DNA from: an uncultured Sphaerochaeta sp.
GTDB taxonomy: Bacteria > Spirochaetota > Spirochaetia > Sphaerochaetales > Sphaerochaetaceae
NCBI GenBank assembly: GCA_964407735.1
Contig: CAYOWS010000012.1
Span: forward strand, 28,853 to 92,852
DNA: 64,000 nt
Direction of reading: 5' to 3'
Position 1 is the stretch's first letter; each line of letters opens with the position of its first letter. Position numbers and translations under genes: made by a program. Below the pieces are notes generated by a model that saw only the letters and a list, made by a program, of their open reading frames with translations, did not search any database and was not told the origin of the DNA. This document shows positions 15,163-58,428 of this stretch, piece after piece.

Positions 15163-15309
<147 letters not shown>

Positions 15310-15368: not shown

Positions 15369-15489
15369 GTGTCGTCTGATAGGAGCTGATAGAAGAAAAA
15401 GCAGTAACCAAGGTTTGTAGACAAGGCAGCCTGGGACACTGAAAAAGTTTTGATTGCGATATTTTTTTGTAAGGGAAAAGGAGATGGAA

Positions 15490-17211
15490 ATGAAAAAGAA
15501 CAGATTGTTGACGGTGTCAGCATTCCTCGCTATTACAATGGCGGTTATGCTTGTGTTCACTGGTTGTAATGCGGATATGCAGGAGCCATCCGAAACAGGT
15601 ACATTATCTATGTCAATTAATGATATTGGCCCTCATGCTACAGAGTCTGATACGTATCGAATATCCGTGCGACAAGGTGGTACAGAAAAGTCATATGAGT
15701 TTGCCAAGGCTGGCACATTTGATATTGAAAATCTTGCCCCGGGATCCTATACGGTGATCGTAGAGGCCATCAACAAAGGTGATGAGTCCGACGATGCGGT
15801 CTACAGTGTTGGGATGATGACAAGTGCTACGGTCATAGCTGGTAGCAGAACGCCATGTCCTGTTGATCTGAAAGGTTGCGTGTATATTTCTTCTACTGGA
15901 GCTGATGATGGACCAGGATCTAAAGATTCTCCCTATAAGACTATTGCGAAAGCATTGCAAGCTATCGATACCAGCAATATAGGTACAATCCATATTCTGA
16001 ACGATATCACAGAGGACGTAACGATCAATCAACCAGTAGCGATCGTAGGTTTTGGTGCTGATCCTGTCACAACTGATTTAGATGGATATACCATTTCATC
16101 AGGGGATCCATCTGTTGTTACACTTACAGGCAAACTGACCGTTAATGCTGATGTGGTTCTCAGAAATCTCAAGCTGGTGAGTTCTGATGATCATGCGATA
16201 AAAATCACAAAGGCTAATGGAATTTCTTTTATTGGTAGCCATCTTTACATTGTTCCCGGCTCCAAAAAGAATGGGATCGAGTATTCGGTGAATATGACCG
16301 ATGATGCTTCTATTGTTTTGGACCATTCCATTATCGAACTGACCGGTAACAATGGATATGATCATGTCGGGATCCGTGTCGATGGTACTGGAGCCGCTAT
16401 TCCATATACATCGAAGCTCGGCACAGCAATTGTCTCCATTTGGGATTCTTCGATAAAAGCCTCTCAGGGGCTGGGGATTGACCTGAAGCGTCTTGCGAAA
16501 GCTGACCTGTACCTAGATGGAAGTCATATAGATATCGATACAAACTATTATGCTGTCCGGCTCTATGACGTTGGCAAAGTGGATACACAAAGTACGGCCA
16601 TAGCAAAAAATTCTTTTTTGAAAGGATGGGGCGCATTCTATATTCAGGCGGATTCTTACAACATCCAGTCTACAATTTCAAATTGTATTCTCACTGGATA
16701 TAACAACAATACTGGAGTAACCAACGATTTCAATACAATCCCGCTTGATTCTAGTACAAATTGTGATGCTGTGATTGAGAATTCAACCATTCAATTCGGG
16801 CGTTCCTCAACTGCGGAAGATCAGGCTGCGGCTAAGATCTATTACTATGACAATACAGGAGAAGGACAGAGTACGGTTGAATTTAAGAACAACAAAATAG
16901 AATGGGTGGGAACCGGAACTGAGATGGGTTCCATTGTCTTCTCTGCTGAAACGATAATACAGAAAAATGGAGTAGATACAAATTTTGCACCAAATGAAAT
17001 TATCGTCGATGCGGCTACATTGAAATCCTTGACTGACCAAGGCTATGATGTACATAGGAGTACAGATACTGAATATCTATCGGGGACAAAGCTTGATGGA
17101 AAATGGAATGGACTGATGAATCCCGCAAAAGCGACAGGGACGCGTACAGAAGATTCTACACCATATACTCTGAGCATACAGACCATTTCCTTTGAAAGGC
17201 CGGTTGACTGA
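15490..17211 (+). CDS. Lipoprotein with Ig-like N-domain and DUF1565/beta-helix-like region
   Basis: SD aaaggag lies before the ATG at 15490. Lipobox MLVFTGC|N. GSKDSPYKTIAKALQAI parallels the motif in the 4838 lipoprotein. The gene is AT-rich relative to its neighbours (by eye). Confidence 0.8.
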   Translation: MKKNRLLTVSAFLAITMAVMLVFTGCNADMQEPSETGTLSMSINDIGPHATESDTYRISVRQGGTEKSYEFAKAGTFDIENLAPGSYTVIVEAINKGDESDDAVYSVGMMTSATVIAGSRTPCPVDLKGCVYISSTGADDGPGSKDSPYKTIAKALQAIDTSNIGTIHILNDITEDVTINQPVAIVGFGADPVTTDLDGYTISSGDPSVVTLTGKLTVNADVVLRNLKLVSSDDHAIKITKANGISFIGSHLYIVPGSKKNGIEYSVNMTDDASIVLDHSIIELTGNNGYDHVGIRVDGTGAAIPYTSKLGTAIVSIWDSSIKASQGLGIDLKRLAKADLYLDGSHIDIDTNYYAVRLYDVGKVDTQSTAIAKNSFLKGWGAFYIQADSYNIQSTISNCILTGYNNNTGVTNDFNTIPLDSSTNCDAVIENSTIQFGRSSTAEDQAAAKIYYYDNTGEGQSTVEFKNNKIEWVGTGTEMGSIVFSAETIIQKNGVDTNFAPNEIIVDAATLKSLTDQGYDVHRSTDTEYLSGTKLDGKWNGLMNPAKATGTRTEDSTPYTLSIQTISFERPVD

Positions 17212-20319: not shown

Positions 20320-21264
20320 TTATATGATACTGTTATCTAACAACTGACTATTGCACAGAATCTCGATCTGCATCAGCGAGGGGAGGGACGCCTGGGCTCC
20401 TCCCTTGTGTTGTATGGAGACGGCTGCCGCGGCCTGGGCGAAATAGACGGCATCCTGGACATCGTCTCCACGCCCTACGGCGAAAGCGAAGGCCGCGTTG
20501 AAAATGTCCCCGGCGTCGGTCGTATCCACGACCTTGAGATCCCTGTATGCGCTGAAATGCTGACCACCCTGTCTATCAAAATAGTAGAGCCCCTGTTCGC
20601 CACAAGTCAGGACGACATGCTGTACGCCTTTCTTCTTGAACCATGTCGCCGCACGTTTCGCACTCGCCGTGTCCACGACCTCTATGCCGGTCAGGGCTTT
20701 CGTTTCCTCCTGGTTCGGGGTGATATAGTCGAGCATATCGTAGATCACAGCGGGGTATTTTGTGTTTATGCCAGGGTCAAGGAACACCGTCTTACCTGCT
20801 TTGCGGGTCAGCTCTTTCGCCAGAAGTGCCGTTTCAGCCGGGATATCCCCCTGGAGGAGGAGGTAGTCGCATTGGCGCAGCGTATCGGCATGGAGACTGA
20901 GATAGGCGTCGTCGAGCTTGCCGTTCGCCCCTGCGTACAGGAGTTCGATCTCGTGTCCCGAAGCATCGATGTTGACCAAGGCCATACCTGTGGAGCATTT
21001 CGGTTCAGCTTTTATGTCGGCTACCTGAACTCCGAGTTTCTGGAGTGATTCGATATAGGCTTTGCCGAAACTATCGGAACCGACTTTGCCGATGAAACTG
21101 ACTTTCGCACCGAACTTCGCCAATGCGACGGCTATGTTTCCTCCCTGTCCGCCGAACGACGGTCTGAGGTCGTCAACCTGGATATGGTCCCCCGGCTGGG
21201 GAAAGTCCTTGCATTTGGTGGTCAGGCTGTAATAGAGGCTTCCAATGACACAATACGTACTCAT
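20320..21264 (-). CDS. PfkB-family carbohydrate kinase (ribokinase-like)
   Basis: GGQGGNIAVALAKFG near the N-terminus and the DTTDAGDIFNAAFA anion-hole motif near the C-terminus. Confidence 0.85.
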   Translation of the reverse strand: MSTYCVIGSLYYSLTTKCKDFPQPGDHIQVDDLRPSFGGQGGNIAVALAKFGAKVSFIGKVGSDSFGKAYIESLQKLGVQVADIKAEPKCSTGMALVNIDASGHEIELLYAGANGKLDDAYLSLHADTLRQCDYLLLQGDIPAETALLAKELTRKAGKTVFLDPGINTKYPAVIYDMLDYITPNQEETKALTGIEVVDTASAKRAATWFKKKGVQHVVLTCGEQGLYYFDRQGGQHFSAYRDLKVVDTTDAGDIFNAAFAFAVGRGDDVQDAVYFAQAAAAVSIQHKGGAQASLPSLMQIEILCNSQLLDNSII

Positions 21265-23753: not shown

Positions 23754-23844
23754 GAGGCAGATACTCCGCCGACCGACATAAGGCTGATGTAGGGCTAATG
23801 CTAGAGAGGGCGAAAGCACTCTCTGCTTCCGCCCTCTTGATCAC

Positions 23845-25196: not shown

Positions 25197-25549
25197 TAAT
25201 TGTTTCCTCCACGTCGTGTTTACTCAAATATATCAGCGTCGGTATGCTTTGATAAGGGGGTTGCCCCTTTAATTTTACGTAAAGAACAAATTAAAATAGT
25301 AAAGGGAGAGGATCGTGATGGGACACGGTGGGGAAAACCAATAGGACGCAGAAAAGTATCAGCGGCTAGGCACCGATGCAGGGAACTTCCGGCCTGGCCG
25401 ATTGGATTCGGATGTTCGGCTCCCGCCGTTCAGAAGTCTGGAGATTCTTTGGTGACAGAGATCATCGAGGAAGTTGAAGAGGAACTGCGGCCTATTGTGT
25501 TTGATGGCACGGATTGGCCTATCGACTATGTCCGGATACGTCTGAAGGC

Positions 25550-31149: not shown

Positions 31150-31300
31150 ATACGGGCTGTTGCACGGGTATGGTGGTGCTTGTGCGGTAGACGTGTCACA
31201 TTCGGGGTAGACCTGTCCTGAGAACTGTCCCTGTGGCGGGCAGGCATGCCTATATCCGACCAGTCCTGTCCATAGACTAGCGTACTTGCAGGCGGATGTA
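31150..31300. repeat. Weak array of about 11-bp phased ACGGGT / GGTAGAC / ATAGAC units (same family as 39158, 56801, 58365)
   Basis: tacgggctgtt gcacgggtatg ... gcggtagacgt gtcacattcgg ggtagacctgt ... atagactagcg, read in 11-nt register. Confidence 0.4.
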
Positions 31301-37686: not shown

Positions 37687-39054
37687 ATGAAGATATTGAT
37701 TGTTGATGACGAACCGAACATCAGAGAACTCATGAGGAAGTATCTTGGTCTTGAAGGGATCGACAGCGATGGAGCGGAGAACGGATTCTCCGCGCAGCGT
37801 CTGCTGAAAGAGACTCCCTACGATGCCTGTCTGGTCGATTTGAAGATGCCGGGGATGGATGGTTTGCAGCTGATCATGTGGTTGCGTCAGGAGGGCTTCC
37901 GTATGCCCGTCATCATGATTTCCGCCCATGGCGAGATCAACGACGCCGTTTCCGCTTTGAAGGAAGGGGCCCAGGACTATATCGTGAAACCGTTTGATCC
38001 TGAGGAGCTGACCATCAGGCTGAAGAAGCTGGTCGAGGCCCAGAACCTGCGCAATCTGGTTGAATCGGAGTCCCGTGCCAATGAAGATGGCGGGCAGAGC
38101 GGTTTCATCGGGGATTCCCTGCCGATCAGAAAGATCAAGGAAGTGATCAGCCGCATAGCCGATAGTCCCGCGACGGTGTTGATCACCGGTGAAAGCGGTA
38201 CAGGCAAGGAGGTCGTCGCCCGGGCGATCCATGCTTCTTCGTTGTTGAAGGATGGCCCTTTCGTCGCGATCAATATCGGTGGTGTACCTGAGAATCTGTT
38301 GGAGAGCGAGTTGTTCGGATATGAGAAGGGCGCTTTCACCGGTGCTACGAGCCGCAAGCCGGGCATGTTCGAACTCGCTTCGGGAGGGACCTTGTTCCTC
38401 GATGAGATAGGTGATATGCCTCTGTCCCTTCAAGTGAAGATCCTTCGTGTATTGCAGGACCACAAGATCACCCGGTTGGGTGGAACGACTCCGATTCCTA
38501 TCAACGCAAGGATCATCGCGGCGACCAACAAGAATCTGGAGGACATGGTCCGTCAGGGGAAGTTCCGGGAGGATCTTTTCTATCGGCTGAACGTCGTGCG
38601 CATTGAGATTCCGCCGTTGAGGGACCGCAAGGATGATATCCCGACGCTTGTAGCGGGCATCATCCGCCGTTTGAACCGCCAGATGGGGCACAAGATCGAG
38701 GGGCTGTCCCCCGATGCCTTGGAGCTGCTCAAGCATCATAATTTCTACGGCAATGTCCGCGAGCTGGAAAACATTCTGGAACGGGCTGTCATTTTCGCCG
38801 ATGGTTCGCTGATCCGGGCCGATGACTTGGACCTGAGGGGTAGCGTTTCCCGTCCGGATAGTCAGTCATCTACGAATGTCGTCTACGCTGACTCCGCATC
38901 CAGTGACGCCCGCAGTCTCAAGGAGATGGAGGAGGATGCGATCATCCGGGCTCTGCATCGCTGGGAGGGGAACAGGACCCGTGCCGCGGAGGAACTCGGG
39001 ATCAGCCGCCGTACCTTGATCAACAAGATCGCTGAATACGAGCTCGACTTGTAG
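37687..39054 (+). CDS. Sigma-54-dependent response regulator (NtrC family)
   Basis: Receiver domain (ILIVDDEP...DLKMPGMDG), AAA+ core GESGTGKEVVA, the sigma-54 contact loop GAFTGA, and a C-terminal Fis-type HTH. Confidence 0.95.
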   Translation: MKILIVDDEPNIRELMRKYLGLEGIDSDGAENGFSAQRLLKETPYDACLVDLKMPGMDGLQLIMWLRQEGFRMPVIMISAHGEINDAVSALKEGAQDYIVKPFDPEELTIRLKKLVEAQNLRNLVESESRANEDGGQSGFIGDSLPIRKIKEVISRIADSPATVLITGESGTGKEVVARAIHASSLLKDGPFVAINIGGVPENLLESELFGYEKGAFTGATSRKPGMFELASGGTLFLDEIGDMPLSLQVKILRVLQDHKITRLGGTTPIPINARIIAATNKNLEDMVRQGKFREDLFYRLNVVRIEIPPLRDRKDDIPTLVAGIIRRLNRQMGHKIEGLSPDALELLKHHNFYGNVRELENILERAVIFADGSLIRADDLDLRGSVSRPDSQSSTNVVYADSASSDARSLKEMEEDAIIRALHRWEGNRTRAAEELGISRRTLINKIAEYELDL

Positions 39055-39157
39055 ATTTTGGGGGGAGGATTTTCCCTGTTATGCCAGGCCGCCGGTTTCC
39101 GACTGCCAGATACTGATAGTGCGGGAGCTGATCCTTGCGCTATCGGTTTTTTTGTGG

Positions 39158-39380
39158 TGACGAGTAGGAGTCGGCGTCAGGGTGGGCGTATGACGTAGAG
39201 GTGGAGATACGCCTGACATAGACCCACACAGAGACCCAGATATAGGGACATAGGGAGATACGCCTGACATAGACCCGGACATAGACCCAGAGATAGGGAC
39301 ATAAGGACATACGCCTGACATAGACCCAGACAGAGAAACGCACTTACAGCCATCTCGCTGACATATGGGCACATGGATGA
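39158..39380. repeat. Non-coding array of about 10-11-bp phased GACRTAG units; three copies of a 51-bp higher-order repeat
   Basis: ga(g/c)atacgcctgacatagaccc occurs at 39204, 39255 and 39306. All plus frames are closed by TAG and all minus frames are open. Confidence 0.85.
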
Positions 39381-39434
39381 CTTGCTGAACCTTTGCTGGT
39401 GACGTAGCTGTAGATTTCAACTGTTACCAGTCGA

Positions 39435-39502
39435 ATCAGCAAAAATACGTAAAAAAGTACTGCAAAAACACGTAAAAATAATCAGCAAAAACACGTAAAA
39501 AA
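39435..39502. repeat. Three direct repeats of about 22 bp (ATCAGCAAAAAYACGTAAAAAA)
   Basis: Copies at 39435-39456, 39459-39480 (variant ACTGCAAAAACACGTAAAAATA) and 39481-39502, immediately upstream of the ATPase gene leader. Confidence 0.85.
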
Positions 39503-39578: not shown

Positions 39579-40838
39579 ATGTACTTACCAAGATTGATAG
39601 ACACAATTATTCCGGACTATCTGGAGGCTTTCGGTGCTATTAGTATTCGTGGGCCAAAATGGTGTGGAAAGACAACCACTGCTTCTATGTTTTCGAAAAG
39701 CATGATTCAACTGCAAAGTTCCTCATATACGATGGACGATTTAAAAAATCCCGAGTTGATCATTCCTGTCGCATTGAGTGGTGAGCATCCACGTCTTATT
39801 GATGAATGGCAGACGCTGCCAGGTATCTGGGATGCAGTCAGAACAAAAATTGATACTGATCGTTTAAAAGGCGGATATATATTGACTGGTTCCGCAGTAC
39901 CTGCTGATGACGGCTATTTTCATAGCGGAATCGGGCGAATAGCAAGGTTGACCATGTATCCGATGAGCCTTTTCGAATCGCAAGATTCCAATGGGCAAAT
40001 ATCACTGATGGATTTGTTCAACGGAAAGACAGACTTTTCTGGTAACGTTTCCACACTATCCATCGCCCAACTTGCGTATGTCATTTGTCGTGGTGGATGG
40101 CCAAATACAACGGAACTCAAAGAACATCTCGCGTTATTGACTGCCCAGGAATATTACGCAGGGCTTTGCGAAAGTGATGTTTCCCGGGTGGATGGAGTCA
40201 AACGTAATCCTGAAAGAGTCGATGCAGTTCTTCGGTCTTATGCACGTAATATATCAACCTTTGCCACGAAGGAACTGATATATCAAGATGTATTGGCAAA
40301 TGATGTTACATTGTCTCTGAGTACTTTGAATAATTATATTGATGTGCTGACAAGATTATATGTCATCGAAGATATTCCTGCATGGAATCCCAATGTGCGA
40401 TCAAAAACCTCAATGCGTTCAGGGAACAAAAGAGGGTTTGTAGACCCCTCTCTCGCAGTTGCCGCTTTAGGGCTCAATCCAGACTCTCTCATGGCACAAT
40501 TGCGATATTTTGGTTTTCTCTTTGAGTCCCTTTGTATTCGTGACCTTCGTATTTATGCAATGTGCAATGATGGCCGAATTTCTTACTATCATGATAGGAA
40601 TAATCTAGAATGTGATGTGGTTATCCACCTTCGTGATGGTCGGTATGGCCTCATTGAAATTAAACTTGGTAGTGGTCAGATAGAGGATGGCGCCAGAAAT
40701 TTGACACGGTTGCGAACCCTTTTGATAGATAATGGATTCGAGCCTCCAACGTTCATGATGGTACTGACCGGGGGCCAGTTCGCCTATGAACGTGAGGATG
40801 GTGTGTTGGTCGTGCCTATCGGGTGTCTACGGAATTAG
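39579..40838 (+). CDS. AAA-type ATP-binding protein with DUF4143-like C-terminal domain
   Basis: Walker A GPKWCGKTT, Walker B-like RLIDEWQ, and C-terminal FLFESLCIRDLRIY...ECDVVI (restriction-endonuclease-like DUF4143 pattern). SD ggagg lies before the ATG at 39579. Confidence 0.85.
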   Translation: MYLPRLIDTIIPDYLEAFGAISIRGPKWCGKTTTASMFSKSMIQLQSSSYTMDDLKNPELIIPVALSGEHPRLIDEWQTLPGIWDAVRTKIDTDRLKGGYILTGSAVPADDGYFHSGIGRIARLTMYPMSLFESQDSNGQISLMDLFNGKTDFSGNVSTLSIAQLAYVICRGGWPNTTELKEHLALLTAQEYYAGLCESDVSRVDGVKRNPERVDAVLRSYARNISTFATKELIYQDVLANDVTLSLSTLNNYIDVLTRLYVIEDIPAWNPNVRSKTSMRSGNKRGFVDPSLAVAALGLNPDSLMAQLRYFGFLFESLCIRDLRIYAMCNDGRISYYHDRNNLECDVVIHLRDGRYGLIEIKLGSGQIEDGARNLTRLRTLLIDNGFEPPTFMMVLTGGQFAYEREDGVLVVPIGCLRN

Positions 40839-53923: not shown

Positions 53924-55063
53924 GTGTTGGTTATGACGAGACAAAAATTGATGAATATACTGACTATCACCGTAGTGGTGTCCATATTCTGCTTTGCTGG
54001 GATGAGTTTCATCGGGTATGGGGGTGTGTCCGAAGATCTTCTTGAAACTGCCCGCTCCAGGCAATCTCAGCCGTTGCTGGAGATTCCTGAACCTGAGCGT
54101 GTGAAACCTCAGCCAGCCGAAGCTGTTCCGACCCAGACGGTTACGCCCGCTCCGGTGGCTTCCGTCGATACCGACGCCTTGATGAAGGAACTCCTTCCCA
54201 AGCTGGCCGATGAGCTGACCCCGATCTTGGCTGACCAGCTGAAGACCGATACACAGATAGACCAGGCTCAGCTTGAGGCTGCGTTGCTCACCCAGCTGGA
54301 GCCTCAGCTTGTGACCCGTGCCGAGGAATATCTTCCCGAGCTGGAATCCCTGTTGTTGACCAGGCTTGAACCTCAATTGGTCGCGAAAGCCGAAACGTAT
54401 ATCCCGGAGCTTGAGGCGCTTTTGCTGAAGGATCTCGAACCTCAGCTGGTCGCCAAGGCCGAAACCTATATCCCGCAGCTTGAGGCTGTCCTGCTGGCCG
54501 ATCTTGAGCCTCAGCTGGTCGCGAAAGCGGAAGCGTATATCCCTCAGTTGGTCGATACACTGATCCCTCAACTGGTTCCTCAGGTCGTAGCCGCGCTTGA
54601 AGCGAATCTCGATTCCTACATGCCGACTGTGGCGGAGGCTTTGAAGCCCCATTTCGATTATCTGACGATGGATGATCTGACCGCGGCCTATGAGCAGTAC
54701 AAGCCGCAGATCGTGAAGGACCTTGTCCCCCTGATCGTTCCTGAAGTGTTGGACGCCCTTGAATCCACCTTGGCTTCAACCGTCGCCCAGCCTGCGGCGG
54801 AGCCTGCTGTCGTGAGGACGGCCGAACCTGTCGCGCCTGCGGTCGATGAACTCGCTTCCGCTCCGGCTGTGTCGGCGCAGACTCCTGCGACTCCTGCACC
54901 AGCTTCGGTGCCTGTCGCACCTGTTTCCGTAACCCCGAAATGGTCGATCCCGAATGTGGATGAGGGCTCTTTCACCTATCTCGACCCGGATACCTATGCC
55001 GCTGAACGCGATACAATGCGCCAGCAGGAGATCCAGAAGATCCTGGGCATATTGGAGGACTAG
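53924..55063 (+). CDS. Hypothetical membrane-anchored repeat protein
   Basis: N-terminal TM segment (ILTITVVVSIFCFAGMSFIGY), followed by four 23-aa repeats LEPQLVAKAETYIPELEALLLKD and an Ala/Pro-rich tail. An alternative ATG is at 53933. Confidence 0.65.
   Translation: MLVMTRQKLMNILTITVVVSIFCFAGMSFIGYGGVSEDLLETARSRQSQPLLEIPEPERVKPQPAEAVPTQTVTPAPVASVDTDALMKELLPKLADELTPILADQLKTDTQIDQAQLEAALLTQLEPQLVTRAEEYLPELESLLLTRLEPQLVAKAETYIPELEALLLKDLEPQLVAKAETYIPQLEAVLLADLEPQLVAKAEAYIPQLVDTLIPQLVPQVVAALEANLDSYMPTVAEALKPHFDYLTMDDLTAAYEQYKPQIVKDLVPLIVPEVLDALESTLASTVAQPAAEPAVVRTAEPVAPAVDELASAPAVSAQTPATPAPASVPVAPVSVTPKWSIPNVDEGSFTYLDPDTYAAERDTMRQQEIQKILGILED
54296..54571 (+). repeat. Four in-frame tandem repeats of 69 nt
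   Basis: Repeat starts at 54296, 54365, 54434 and 54503 (ctNgaNcctcaNctNgt...). Confidence 0.9.
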
Positions 55064-56800: not shown

Positions 56801-56877
56801 CTACGTCTCCTCTACGTCCCGTCTACGTTGCGTCTACGTCTCCTATGTCGGCGGTATGTCCGGGTCTATCTCCTTTG
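56801..56877. repeat. Seven tandem 11-nt units (CTACGTCNNNT type)
   Basis: ctacgtctcct ctacgtcccgt ctacgttgcgt ctacgtctcct atgtcggcggt atgtccgggt ctatctcc. Confidence 0.9.
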
Positions 56878-58057: not shown

Positions 58058-58320
58058 ATCATCGCTTTTCGTAATGCGGCGTCGATACGTGTCTGATAGC
58101 CTTTCTCTCCATCACGTTTGAACCATTTCAGCTATATCGGCATTTGATTTGTGGCTGGATGGATGATTCATACGCCGTTTTGAATGCTTCGGATTCCAAC
58201 TCAGAAAGTCGGGGGGGGCATCGTTGAATGGCGGGACTGACTGTATCGTCCTGAACCCTGTCAAAGAATGGCCGTCCTGGTCAGAAGTAATCGGGCCAGT
58301 CCAGACCCGCGGAAAGCTTG
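58033..58320 (-). pseudogene. Decayed BrnA/DUF4415-type antitoxin gene
   Basis: The minus strand encodes ...LKWFKRDGEKGYQTRIDAALRKAMIQEQ (the BrnA C-terminal signature). It is preceded by in-frame TAG/TGA stops and frame changes, and the upstream fragment LSELESEAFKTA is in another frame. Confidence 0.55.
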
Positions 58321-58364
58321 CGAAAGAAGGCTCCTGTCTATGGACAAGGACTGGGCGCATCAAA

Positions 58365-58428
58365 GGAGACGTAGACGCAACGTAGGGGCGACGTAGGGGT
58401 ACCCGTATTGCACCCGTATTGTACCCGT
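58365..58428. repeat. Six tandem 11-nt units: three GACGTAG-type then three ACCCGTATTGY-type
   Basis: gacgtagacgc aacgtaggggc gacgtaggggt acccgtattgc acccgtattgt acccgtaaaaa. Positions 58365-58385 are the exact reverse complement of 56823-56843. Confidence 0.9.

Follow-up and report, generated by a model that had tools for sequence, protein, structure and literature searches.

What is the repetitive, apparently non-coding DNA that separates two unrelated genes in this Sphaerochaetaceae chromosome, and does it have a function? The window analysed here (the whole stretch of 64,000 nucleotides, within a 96,454-bp NCBI contig) carries at positions 39158-39380 a series of short repeated units, designated array A, that lies between the stop codon of a sigma-54 response-regulator gene (39054) and the ATG of a DUF4143 ATPase gene (39579). 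An earlier note on this DNA, which placed both gene borders correctly, described the region as a helically phased member of a dispersed intergenic family. In our assessment there is about an even chance (roughly 0.5) that array A and the arrays B, C and E described below form a lineage-specific family of non-coding minisatellites (VNTRs), which would change by unit slippage and by copying between arrays.

Array A and its surroundings

The regulator gene (37687-39054; Response_reg, Sigma54_activat and HTH_8 domains) is followed on the plus strand by an intrinsic terminator (39112-39154), assigned from a terminator scan and the regulator domains, which comprises a 14-pair stem (39112-39147) and the run TTTTTTT. 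Array A starts directly after it. The leading units at 39158-39202 (plus strand), parsed from the sequence as GACGAGTAGGA, GTCGGCGTCAGGG, TGGGCGTAT and GACGTAGAGGTG, are degenerate, and they are kept with substitutions in a relative, L202. The core of the array occupies 39203-39336 (plus strand) and was delimited by TRF (period 51, 2.6 copies, 90% matches, score 226), a direct-repeat search, autocorrelation and unit parsing. Its 51-bp higher-order unit is composed of 11+12+12+8+8 bp, drawn from three unit types, an 11-mer (GASATACGCCT), a 12-mer (GACATAGACCCR) and an 8-mer (GASATARG), that have the head GA[CG]ATA in common.

The periodic signal survived formal autocorrelation against dinucleotide shuffles, with z values of ~10 at lag 51 and ~5 at lag 12, and the 22-nt block GA(G/C)ATACGCCTGACATAGACCC does start at 39204, 39255 and 39306 with at most one mismatch (chance expectation 0). 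What had been described as three exact 51-bp repeats is right in its period but not in its exactness: the copies start at 39203, 39254 and 39305, and identity to the first copy falls from 90% in the second to 75% in the third, which is incomplete. The core had also been said to recur every 9-12 nt, whereas the heads actually follow one another at 8, 11 or 12 bp. The window contains 28 GACRTAG motifs where 11.2 +/- 3.5 are expected, and they cluster at 39192-39323 (plus), 56801-56849 (minus) and 58368-58396 (plus). Both TRF and autocorrelation place copies of a short unit head-to-tail in tandem, as is expected of a VNTR locus. A CRISPR array, which has repeats of 23-47 bp with unique spacers of similar size, was ruled out since the units here measure only 8-12 bp.

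To the right of array A, the direct-repeat search returned the short repeat TTTGCTGGTGACGTAGCTGTAGA (39392-39414, plus strand), of uncertain significance, which has matches on the opposite, left side at 39150-39162 and 39191-39205. Array A lies ~240 bp upstream of the ATPase start, and the space between is partly taken up by a 23-bp repeat (AATCAGCAAAAACACGTAAAAAA, 39434-39502, plus strand; TRF and direct-repeat search) situated directly upstream of that gene. This repeat is present in three copies in the window and two in L202, and its A5-6 tracts are alternately 10 and 13 bp apart. In intrinsically curved DNA, A/T tracts are phased at ~10.5 bp, and the 23-bp repeat looks like either such DNA or an operator. 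The suggestion that array A is itself intrinsically curved was not upheld, since it lacks A-tracts (its plus strand is 11% T) and so is not classic curved DNA.

The ATPase gene (DUF4143/AAA_14, 39579-40838) forms a low-GC patch (0.45), and its best homologue, the source's own copy aside, is only 60% identical. In L202 the gene is deleted except for its last ~190 bp (L202 1120-1317). These features suggest that the gene was acquired horizontally and is in the course of being lost. Array A is present in L202 and hence predates the deletion and is independent of the ATPase.

The neighbours of the arrays are the sigma-54 regulator, the DUF4143 ATPase, an M3 peptidase, epmB and efp. Homologues of EpmB assign the window to the Sphaerochaetaceae, in the spirochaete phylum. 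A Pfam scan of 20 window ORFs identified efflux systems, ftsH, epmB, efp and a class II tRNA-synthetase-like gene (epmA), and the annotation of relatives adds hsp33, rlmL, polA and mnmE/mnmG in the same gene order. Two other repeats were recorded in the window. A perfect (CT)21.5 microsatellite at 15255-15297 lies ~150 bp upstream of a low-GC 585-aa ORF (15454-17211) that has no Pfam match, and from its sequence this locus is possibly phase-variable. A 69-bp in-frame repeat of 2.6 copies (54368-54547), also present in the relatives L198 and L199, lies inside a 379-aa ORF, whose L198 orthologue has no recorded Pfam hit.

Related arrays and their variation among relatives

Array B (56801-56877, minus strand; TRF, motif clustering and autocorrelation) occupies the spacer between a divergent MFS transporter gene and epmB and is built of 11-bp units with the head GACGTAG or GACATAG; no promoter could be placed there between the divergent genes. 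This bears, like the position of array A relative to the ATPase start, on the idea of a phase-variable contingency locus, in which a repeat inside an ORF or core promoter would switch expression through changes of unit number. Array C consists of two adjacent parts on the plus strand, namely C1 (58364-58399), with 11-bp ACGTAG units recognised from the sequence and from an inverted-repeat comparison with array B, and C2 (58401-58429; TRF), with 2.6 copies of ACCCGTATTGC, which abuts the U-run of the minus-strand efp terminator. Array E (23779-23802, plus strand; unit GGCTAATGTAG) adjoins a hairpin. A weaker related site at 31176-31232 (plus strand), between ftsH and an outer-membrane gene, has GGTAGACGTGTC and GGTAGACCTGTC ~21 bp apart (autocorrelation lag 20, z 4.5) and is variable in a relative, but no significant alignment of it with arrays A, B or C was found.

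The arrays at 56801-56877 and 58365-58428, which the earlier note had linked to array A, are truly related to it: A and B have an exact 15-mer in common, and B and C match over 33 nt at 91%. The weaker resemblance claimed for 31150-31300 and ~25510-25545 stands at the motif level, without significant alignment. Within the window, therefore, shared motifs and alignments bear out the proposed dispersed intergenic family as a small one. Its members differ in gene position, array A following a terminator, array B lying between divergent gene starts and array C between convergent gene ends, and a search for flanks or terminal inverted repeats common to the array loci found none.

Arrays B and C1 are also connected by a 39-nt inverted repeat (56809-56847 and 58361-58399, 87% complementary), whose arms are 1513 bp apart and bracket epmB, the EF-P beta-lysylation gene. 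The repeat could permit inversion or looping of epmB. It contains the exact 22-mer CTACGTTGCGTCTACGTCTCCT, which is absent from the relatives, where only ~9 nt are common to the B and C sites. As far as sequence comparison goes, this restriction to the window demonstrates that sequence moves between arrays, since a three-unit block must have been copied from one to the other after the lineages split. The spacer between epmB and efp varies in other ways as well. At 58068-58340 the window has ~260-290 bp that are absent from all close relatives, and in one 80% relative (L126 3059-4453) a MatE transporter gene is inserted between the two genes, which makes the spacer an insertion hot spot.

Relatives at ~94% DNA identity were available as contigs of ENA ERZ23499827 (L198, L202) and as Logan assemblies (L199-L201, L324-L327). 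All four arrays (A, B, C and E) differ among them by whole units, in steps of ~11, 22, 33 or 44 bp. Array B is 22 bp longer in the window than in L124 and L198 and 33 bp longer than in L199-L201, and a further 11-bp indel separates these two groups of relatives. For C1 and C2 combined the window exceeds the relatives by ~44 bp, or four units; in the relatives array C has one ACGTAG unit and two CCCTAG/CCCGTA units. Array E has two units in the window, three in L324-L326 and ~4 in L202. Array A is ~190 bp long with a 51-bp unit in the window, and ~420 bp long in L202 with a 31-bp unit in 4.2 copies (11+12+8, and additionally a 12-mer in 3.2 copies), where it is interrupted by a 142-bp insert carrying a hairpin; its higher-order structure is thus completely different in the two genomes. 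These comparisons (L124, L198-L202 and L324-L326) demonstrate the gain or loss of whole ~11-bp units, or of blocks of such units, between relatives. Whole-unit hypervariability of this kind between close relatives assigns the arrays to the known class of VNTR or minisatellite loci.

Relatives with 77-80% EpmB identity share the gene order but lack GACRTAG arrays at these sites. They carry unrelated perfect 11-mers instead: ATGACCCTGCA, whose copy number is 1.7, 2.7 or 3.7 depending on the strain within one species, and CTAGGCTCAAC, with 3-3.5 copies. Periods were tallied in a small sample of TRF arrays that reached 2.5 copies and 80% matches or more. The Sphaerochaetaceae DNA (98 kb) contained five arrays with a period of 11, representing four independent loci, and a single one with a period of 23, and no other period from 7 to 25 was seen; in 721 kb of unrelated metagenome DNA, period 11 accounted for six of the 62 arrays.

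A separate observation concerns L198, in which a ~300-bp array (20340-20650) lies between ftsK and an aminotransferase gene; in the 77% relatives these genes are only 12 bp apart. Its ~15 cores recur every 12-21 bp as TAGACGTG nine times and then TACACCTG six times, with the spacers of the super-units alike. Such switching of the core between like spacers suggests that the cores are homogenised or under selection.

Origin of the arrays and competing explanations

The minisatellite reading takes the arrays to sit in non-transcribed or 3'-flanking spacers, where slipped-strand mispairing or unequal exchange would be behind the gains and losses of units, and template switching or gene conversion would be the route of sequence between arrays. 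The arrays would have no sequence-specific cellular function, and their effect would probably be limited to changes of spacer length near terminators and promoters. This reading is favoured by the whole-unit length polymorphism among ~94% relatives, by the lack of conservation in the 77-80% relatives with their other 11-mers, by the exact B/C 22-mer that is confined to the window, and by the lack of a common gene position and of any coding, Rfam or RNA-structure signal. Three features fit it less well. Units that were simply duplicated and then mutated at random would not be expected to have invariant heads (6-7 bp) and differing tails (4-5 bp): over the seven units of arrays B and C, columns 1-6 (the heads) are invariant and columns 7-11 (the tails) all vary. 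The preference for an 11-bp period is also left unexplained, slippage alone being insufficient. The block-wise cores of the L198 array described above likewise go beyond a purely neutral model.

Since the short heads are conserved and the tails vary, we retain as the main alternative, doubtful but possible, that the arrays are multimeric sites for a putative sequence-specific DNA-binding protein. Candidate binders would be a winged-helix, ribbon-helix-helix or nucleoid-associated protein arranged head-to-tail once per helical turn, and copy-number change would then tune occupancy. Arrays B and C suit such binding, with a clean 11-bp period (autocorrelation lag 11, z 4.7 and 6.7), a phase resultant of 0.86-0.96, and an inverted arrangement that brackets epmB. 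The array of L198 does so too, its conserved 8-9-bp core being set among variable spacers at ~21 bp and switched block-wise. Array A gives a mixed picture. It averages 10.2-10.3 bp per head, with five heads per 51 bp in the window and three per 31 bp in the relative, but the earlier proposal that all its cores face one side of the DNA fails, because the heads are spaced 11, 12, 12, 8 and 8 bp apart and give a phase resultant of only 0.57 for a 10.5-bp turn. One-face phasing thus holds for arrays B and C and not for array A. Further points weigh against a binding protein. The arrays adjoin unrelated housekeeping genes in every orientation, no partner gene (rep, par or small RHH) was found near them among the 20 window ORFs compared with Pfam, and the heads are not conserved in the 77-80% relatives and are decaying in a 94% relative. 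In the alignment of array B between the window and L198, three of the four substitutions fall in heads, so there is no sign of purifying selection on the motif.

We put forward only tentatively, as a rather unlikely account, that a dedicated process of this clade creates, homogenises and spreads arrays of ~11-bp (or 21-23-bp) units at many intergenic sites. Such a process might consist of a DNA-binding protein that reads the 6-9-bp heads, or of replication-linked copying of units one helical turn or one primer in length. Its attraction is that one cause would cover the period preference, heads that stay invariant beside free tails, the switching of cores in blocks and the 22-mer shared by two arrays.

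That the arrays are remnants or ends of mobile elements, whether subterminal repeats of a transposon or MITE or REP-like sequences recognised through GTAG by a Y1 (RAYT) transposase, appears improbable. Related copies are dispersed, the exact 22-mer occurs inverted at two loci, most heads contain GTAG or ATAG, and some ACGTAG arrays of other phyla adjoin REP-like hairpins or form convergent arrays at many loci. Against this, conserved flanks, terminal inverted repeats and target duplications are absent around the arrays, the repeat search found no palindrome inside them, no transposase was detected among the 20 window ORFs scanned against Pfam, and there was no phage, plasmid or viral-contig match. 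The segment from array B to array C is moreover not an insertion, since every relative has the same gene order around epmB.

Replication and partition sequences were considered and appear unlikely. Plasmid and phage iterons adjoin a replication-initiator gene or an origin, and here no initiator gene or origin is adjacent; GC skew rises monotonically across the window, which places no origin within it, and BLAST of the array region against plasmids and phages gave no match. A type II centromere has two 11-bp iteron clusters flanking the promoter of a parM-parR operon, and a parC-like site of this kind was discarded because the 20 ORFs include neither an actin-like ATPase gene nor a small RHH gene. 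The readings as a Rho-utilisation site, CsrA sponge, G-quadruplex, KOPS/Chi sequence or DnaA box were dropped on inspection, as orientation and composition are inconsistent between arrays.

It is very unlikely that array A gives rise to a small RNA that is structured or sponges a protein such as CsrA. The plus strand does have several GGA motifs, but these are lost in the relative's units (GAGATAACGAGATACGTCA). A terminator precedes the array, and no site resembling a promoter was detected. Rfam gave nothing at the gathering score over the window and nothing even at E<=1 over the array region, and both strands of array A fold no better than shuffles (z -0.85 and -0.52).

We give practically no credence to a repetitive small protein encoded by the 113-aa minus-strand ORF (39079-39420), although all three minus frames are open, as the earlier note had observed, and 51 is a multiple of 3: the openness is explained by the 11% T of the plus strand, on which stops close all three frames, and the 31-bp unit of L202, not being a multiple of 3, splits and frame-shifts the ORF into 56- and 86-aa pieces in different frames. 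No Pfam family matched the ORF, and among 1.8 billion representative proteins it retrieved only four weak multi-stretch matches, in proteins of 257-2251 aa, which we read as low-complexity matches. The original description of array A as non-coding is thereby sustained, and on the present sequence criteria it is neither a gene nor a known RNA.

Wider searches and comparison with known repeats

A scan of a genome collection for three RACGTAG motifs at 11-bp spacing returned at least 119 loci in many phyla; the source genome was absent among the matches listed. In viral contigs, three scrambled heptamers used as controls gave 15, 14 and 20 stretches against 20 for ACGTAG. As the controls were equally frequent, ACGTAG arrays are not special and the matches do not represent a conserved element. 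A cross-phylum ACGTAG family was accordingly rejected, the matches being generic 11-bp tandem repeats and lineage-private families. A scan of metagenomes and viral contigs with GACATAGACCCNNASATA gave chance matches and GACATA/GACACA hexamer microsatellites, with no further members, and nothing specific was found in the literature on Sphaerochaeta repeats and 11-bp VNTRs.

Multi-locus families of ACGTAG-type 11-mer arrays occur in the Bacteroidales MAG CAKVEC01 (L003, L011, L012, L016, L020 and others) and in L007, L010, L014 and L025. One ACGTAG-type family in other phyla has conserved TATGCA-rich flanks, another forms convergent arrays of ~5 direct and then ~4 inverted units, and some proteobacterial arrays (L017, L023, L038) abut REP-like hairpins. 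The 11-mer ACGTAGCTGTA, which occurs once in the right flank of array A (39402-39412), is perfectly repeated 8-10 or more times in the Spirochaetota MAG PPR_0598 (L049, L062, L064, L065, L069), at no fewer than five unrelated intergenic sites and often at contig ends.

Among known systems, 11-bp direct repeats serve as binding arrays in the R1 parC iterons, bound by ParR, and in the Pho-box units bound by PhoB/PhoP. Arrays B and C may be likened to these by analogy, with a ~7-bp core and a ~4-bp variable spacer placed head-to-tail at 11 bp. Unlike them, however, the arrays described here are hypervariable, lie scattered beside unrelated genes and show no conservation across related species, array A is unevenly spaced, and neither parMR genes nor a Pho-type regulatory context accompanies them. 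REP and BIME sequences are imperfect palindromes of 20-40 nt with a GTAG head that are mobilised by RAYT. They resemble the present arrays in being a dispersed intergenic family, often beside terminators, with a GTAG-containing motif. This identity was nevertheless rejected, as the arrays are direct repeats without hairpin potential or an inner inverted repeat and no RAYT was seen.

A closer likeness is to bacterial VNTRs, as used in MLVA typing, and to the long tandem repeats with 6-11-bp units that are enriched between the genes of some prokaryotes (PMC4060949). In both, non-coding tandem units change in copy number by whole units and have no known function. The arrays differ from bacterial VNTRs in that several loci carry related units, even exact 15-22-mers, and in having a higher-order structure (51 bp against 31 bp) and a period of 11 that strongly predominates in the lineage. 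If they are only minisatellites, they would serve to tell Sphaerochaetaceae strains apart at high resolution in metagenomes. They are also probably a source of assembly breaks, similar arrays being found at contig ends in another spirochaete MAG. If instead a binding protein or a special mode of copying is involved, they would offer a tractable system for the origin and spread of short arrays in bacterial chromosomes.

The same question is posed by the short tandemly repeated repetitive (STRR) heptamers of heterocystous cyanobacteria, which were reportedly described by Mazel et al. in 1990. In STRR, tandem copies of one short unit occupy many intergenic sites of a genome (PMC2670836). The family described here differs in its ~11-bp unit against one of 7 bp, in its phylum and in the greater heterogeneity of its units, but it has in common with STRR the amplification of a short unit at multiple intergenic sites of one genome.
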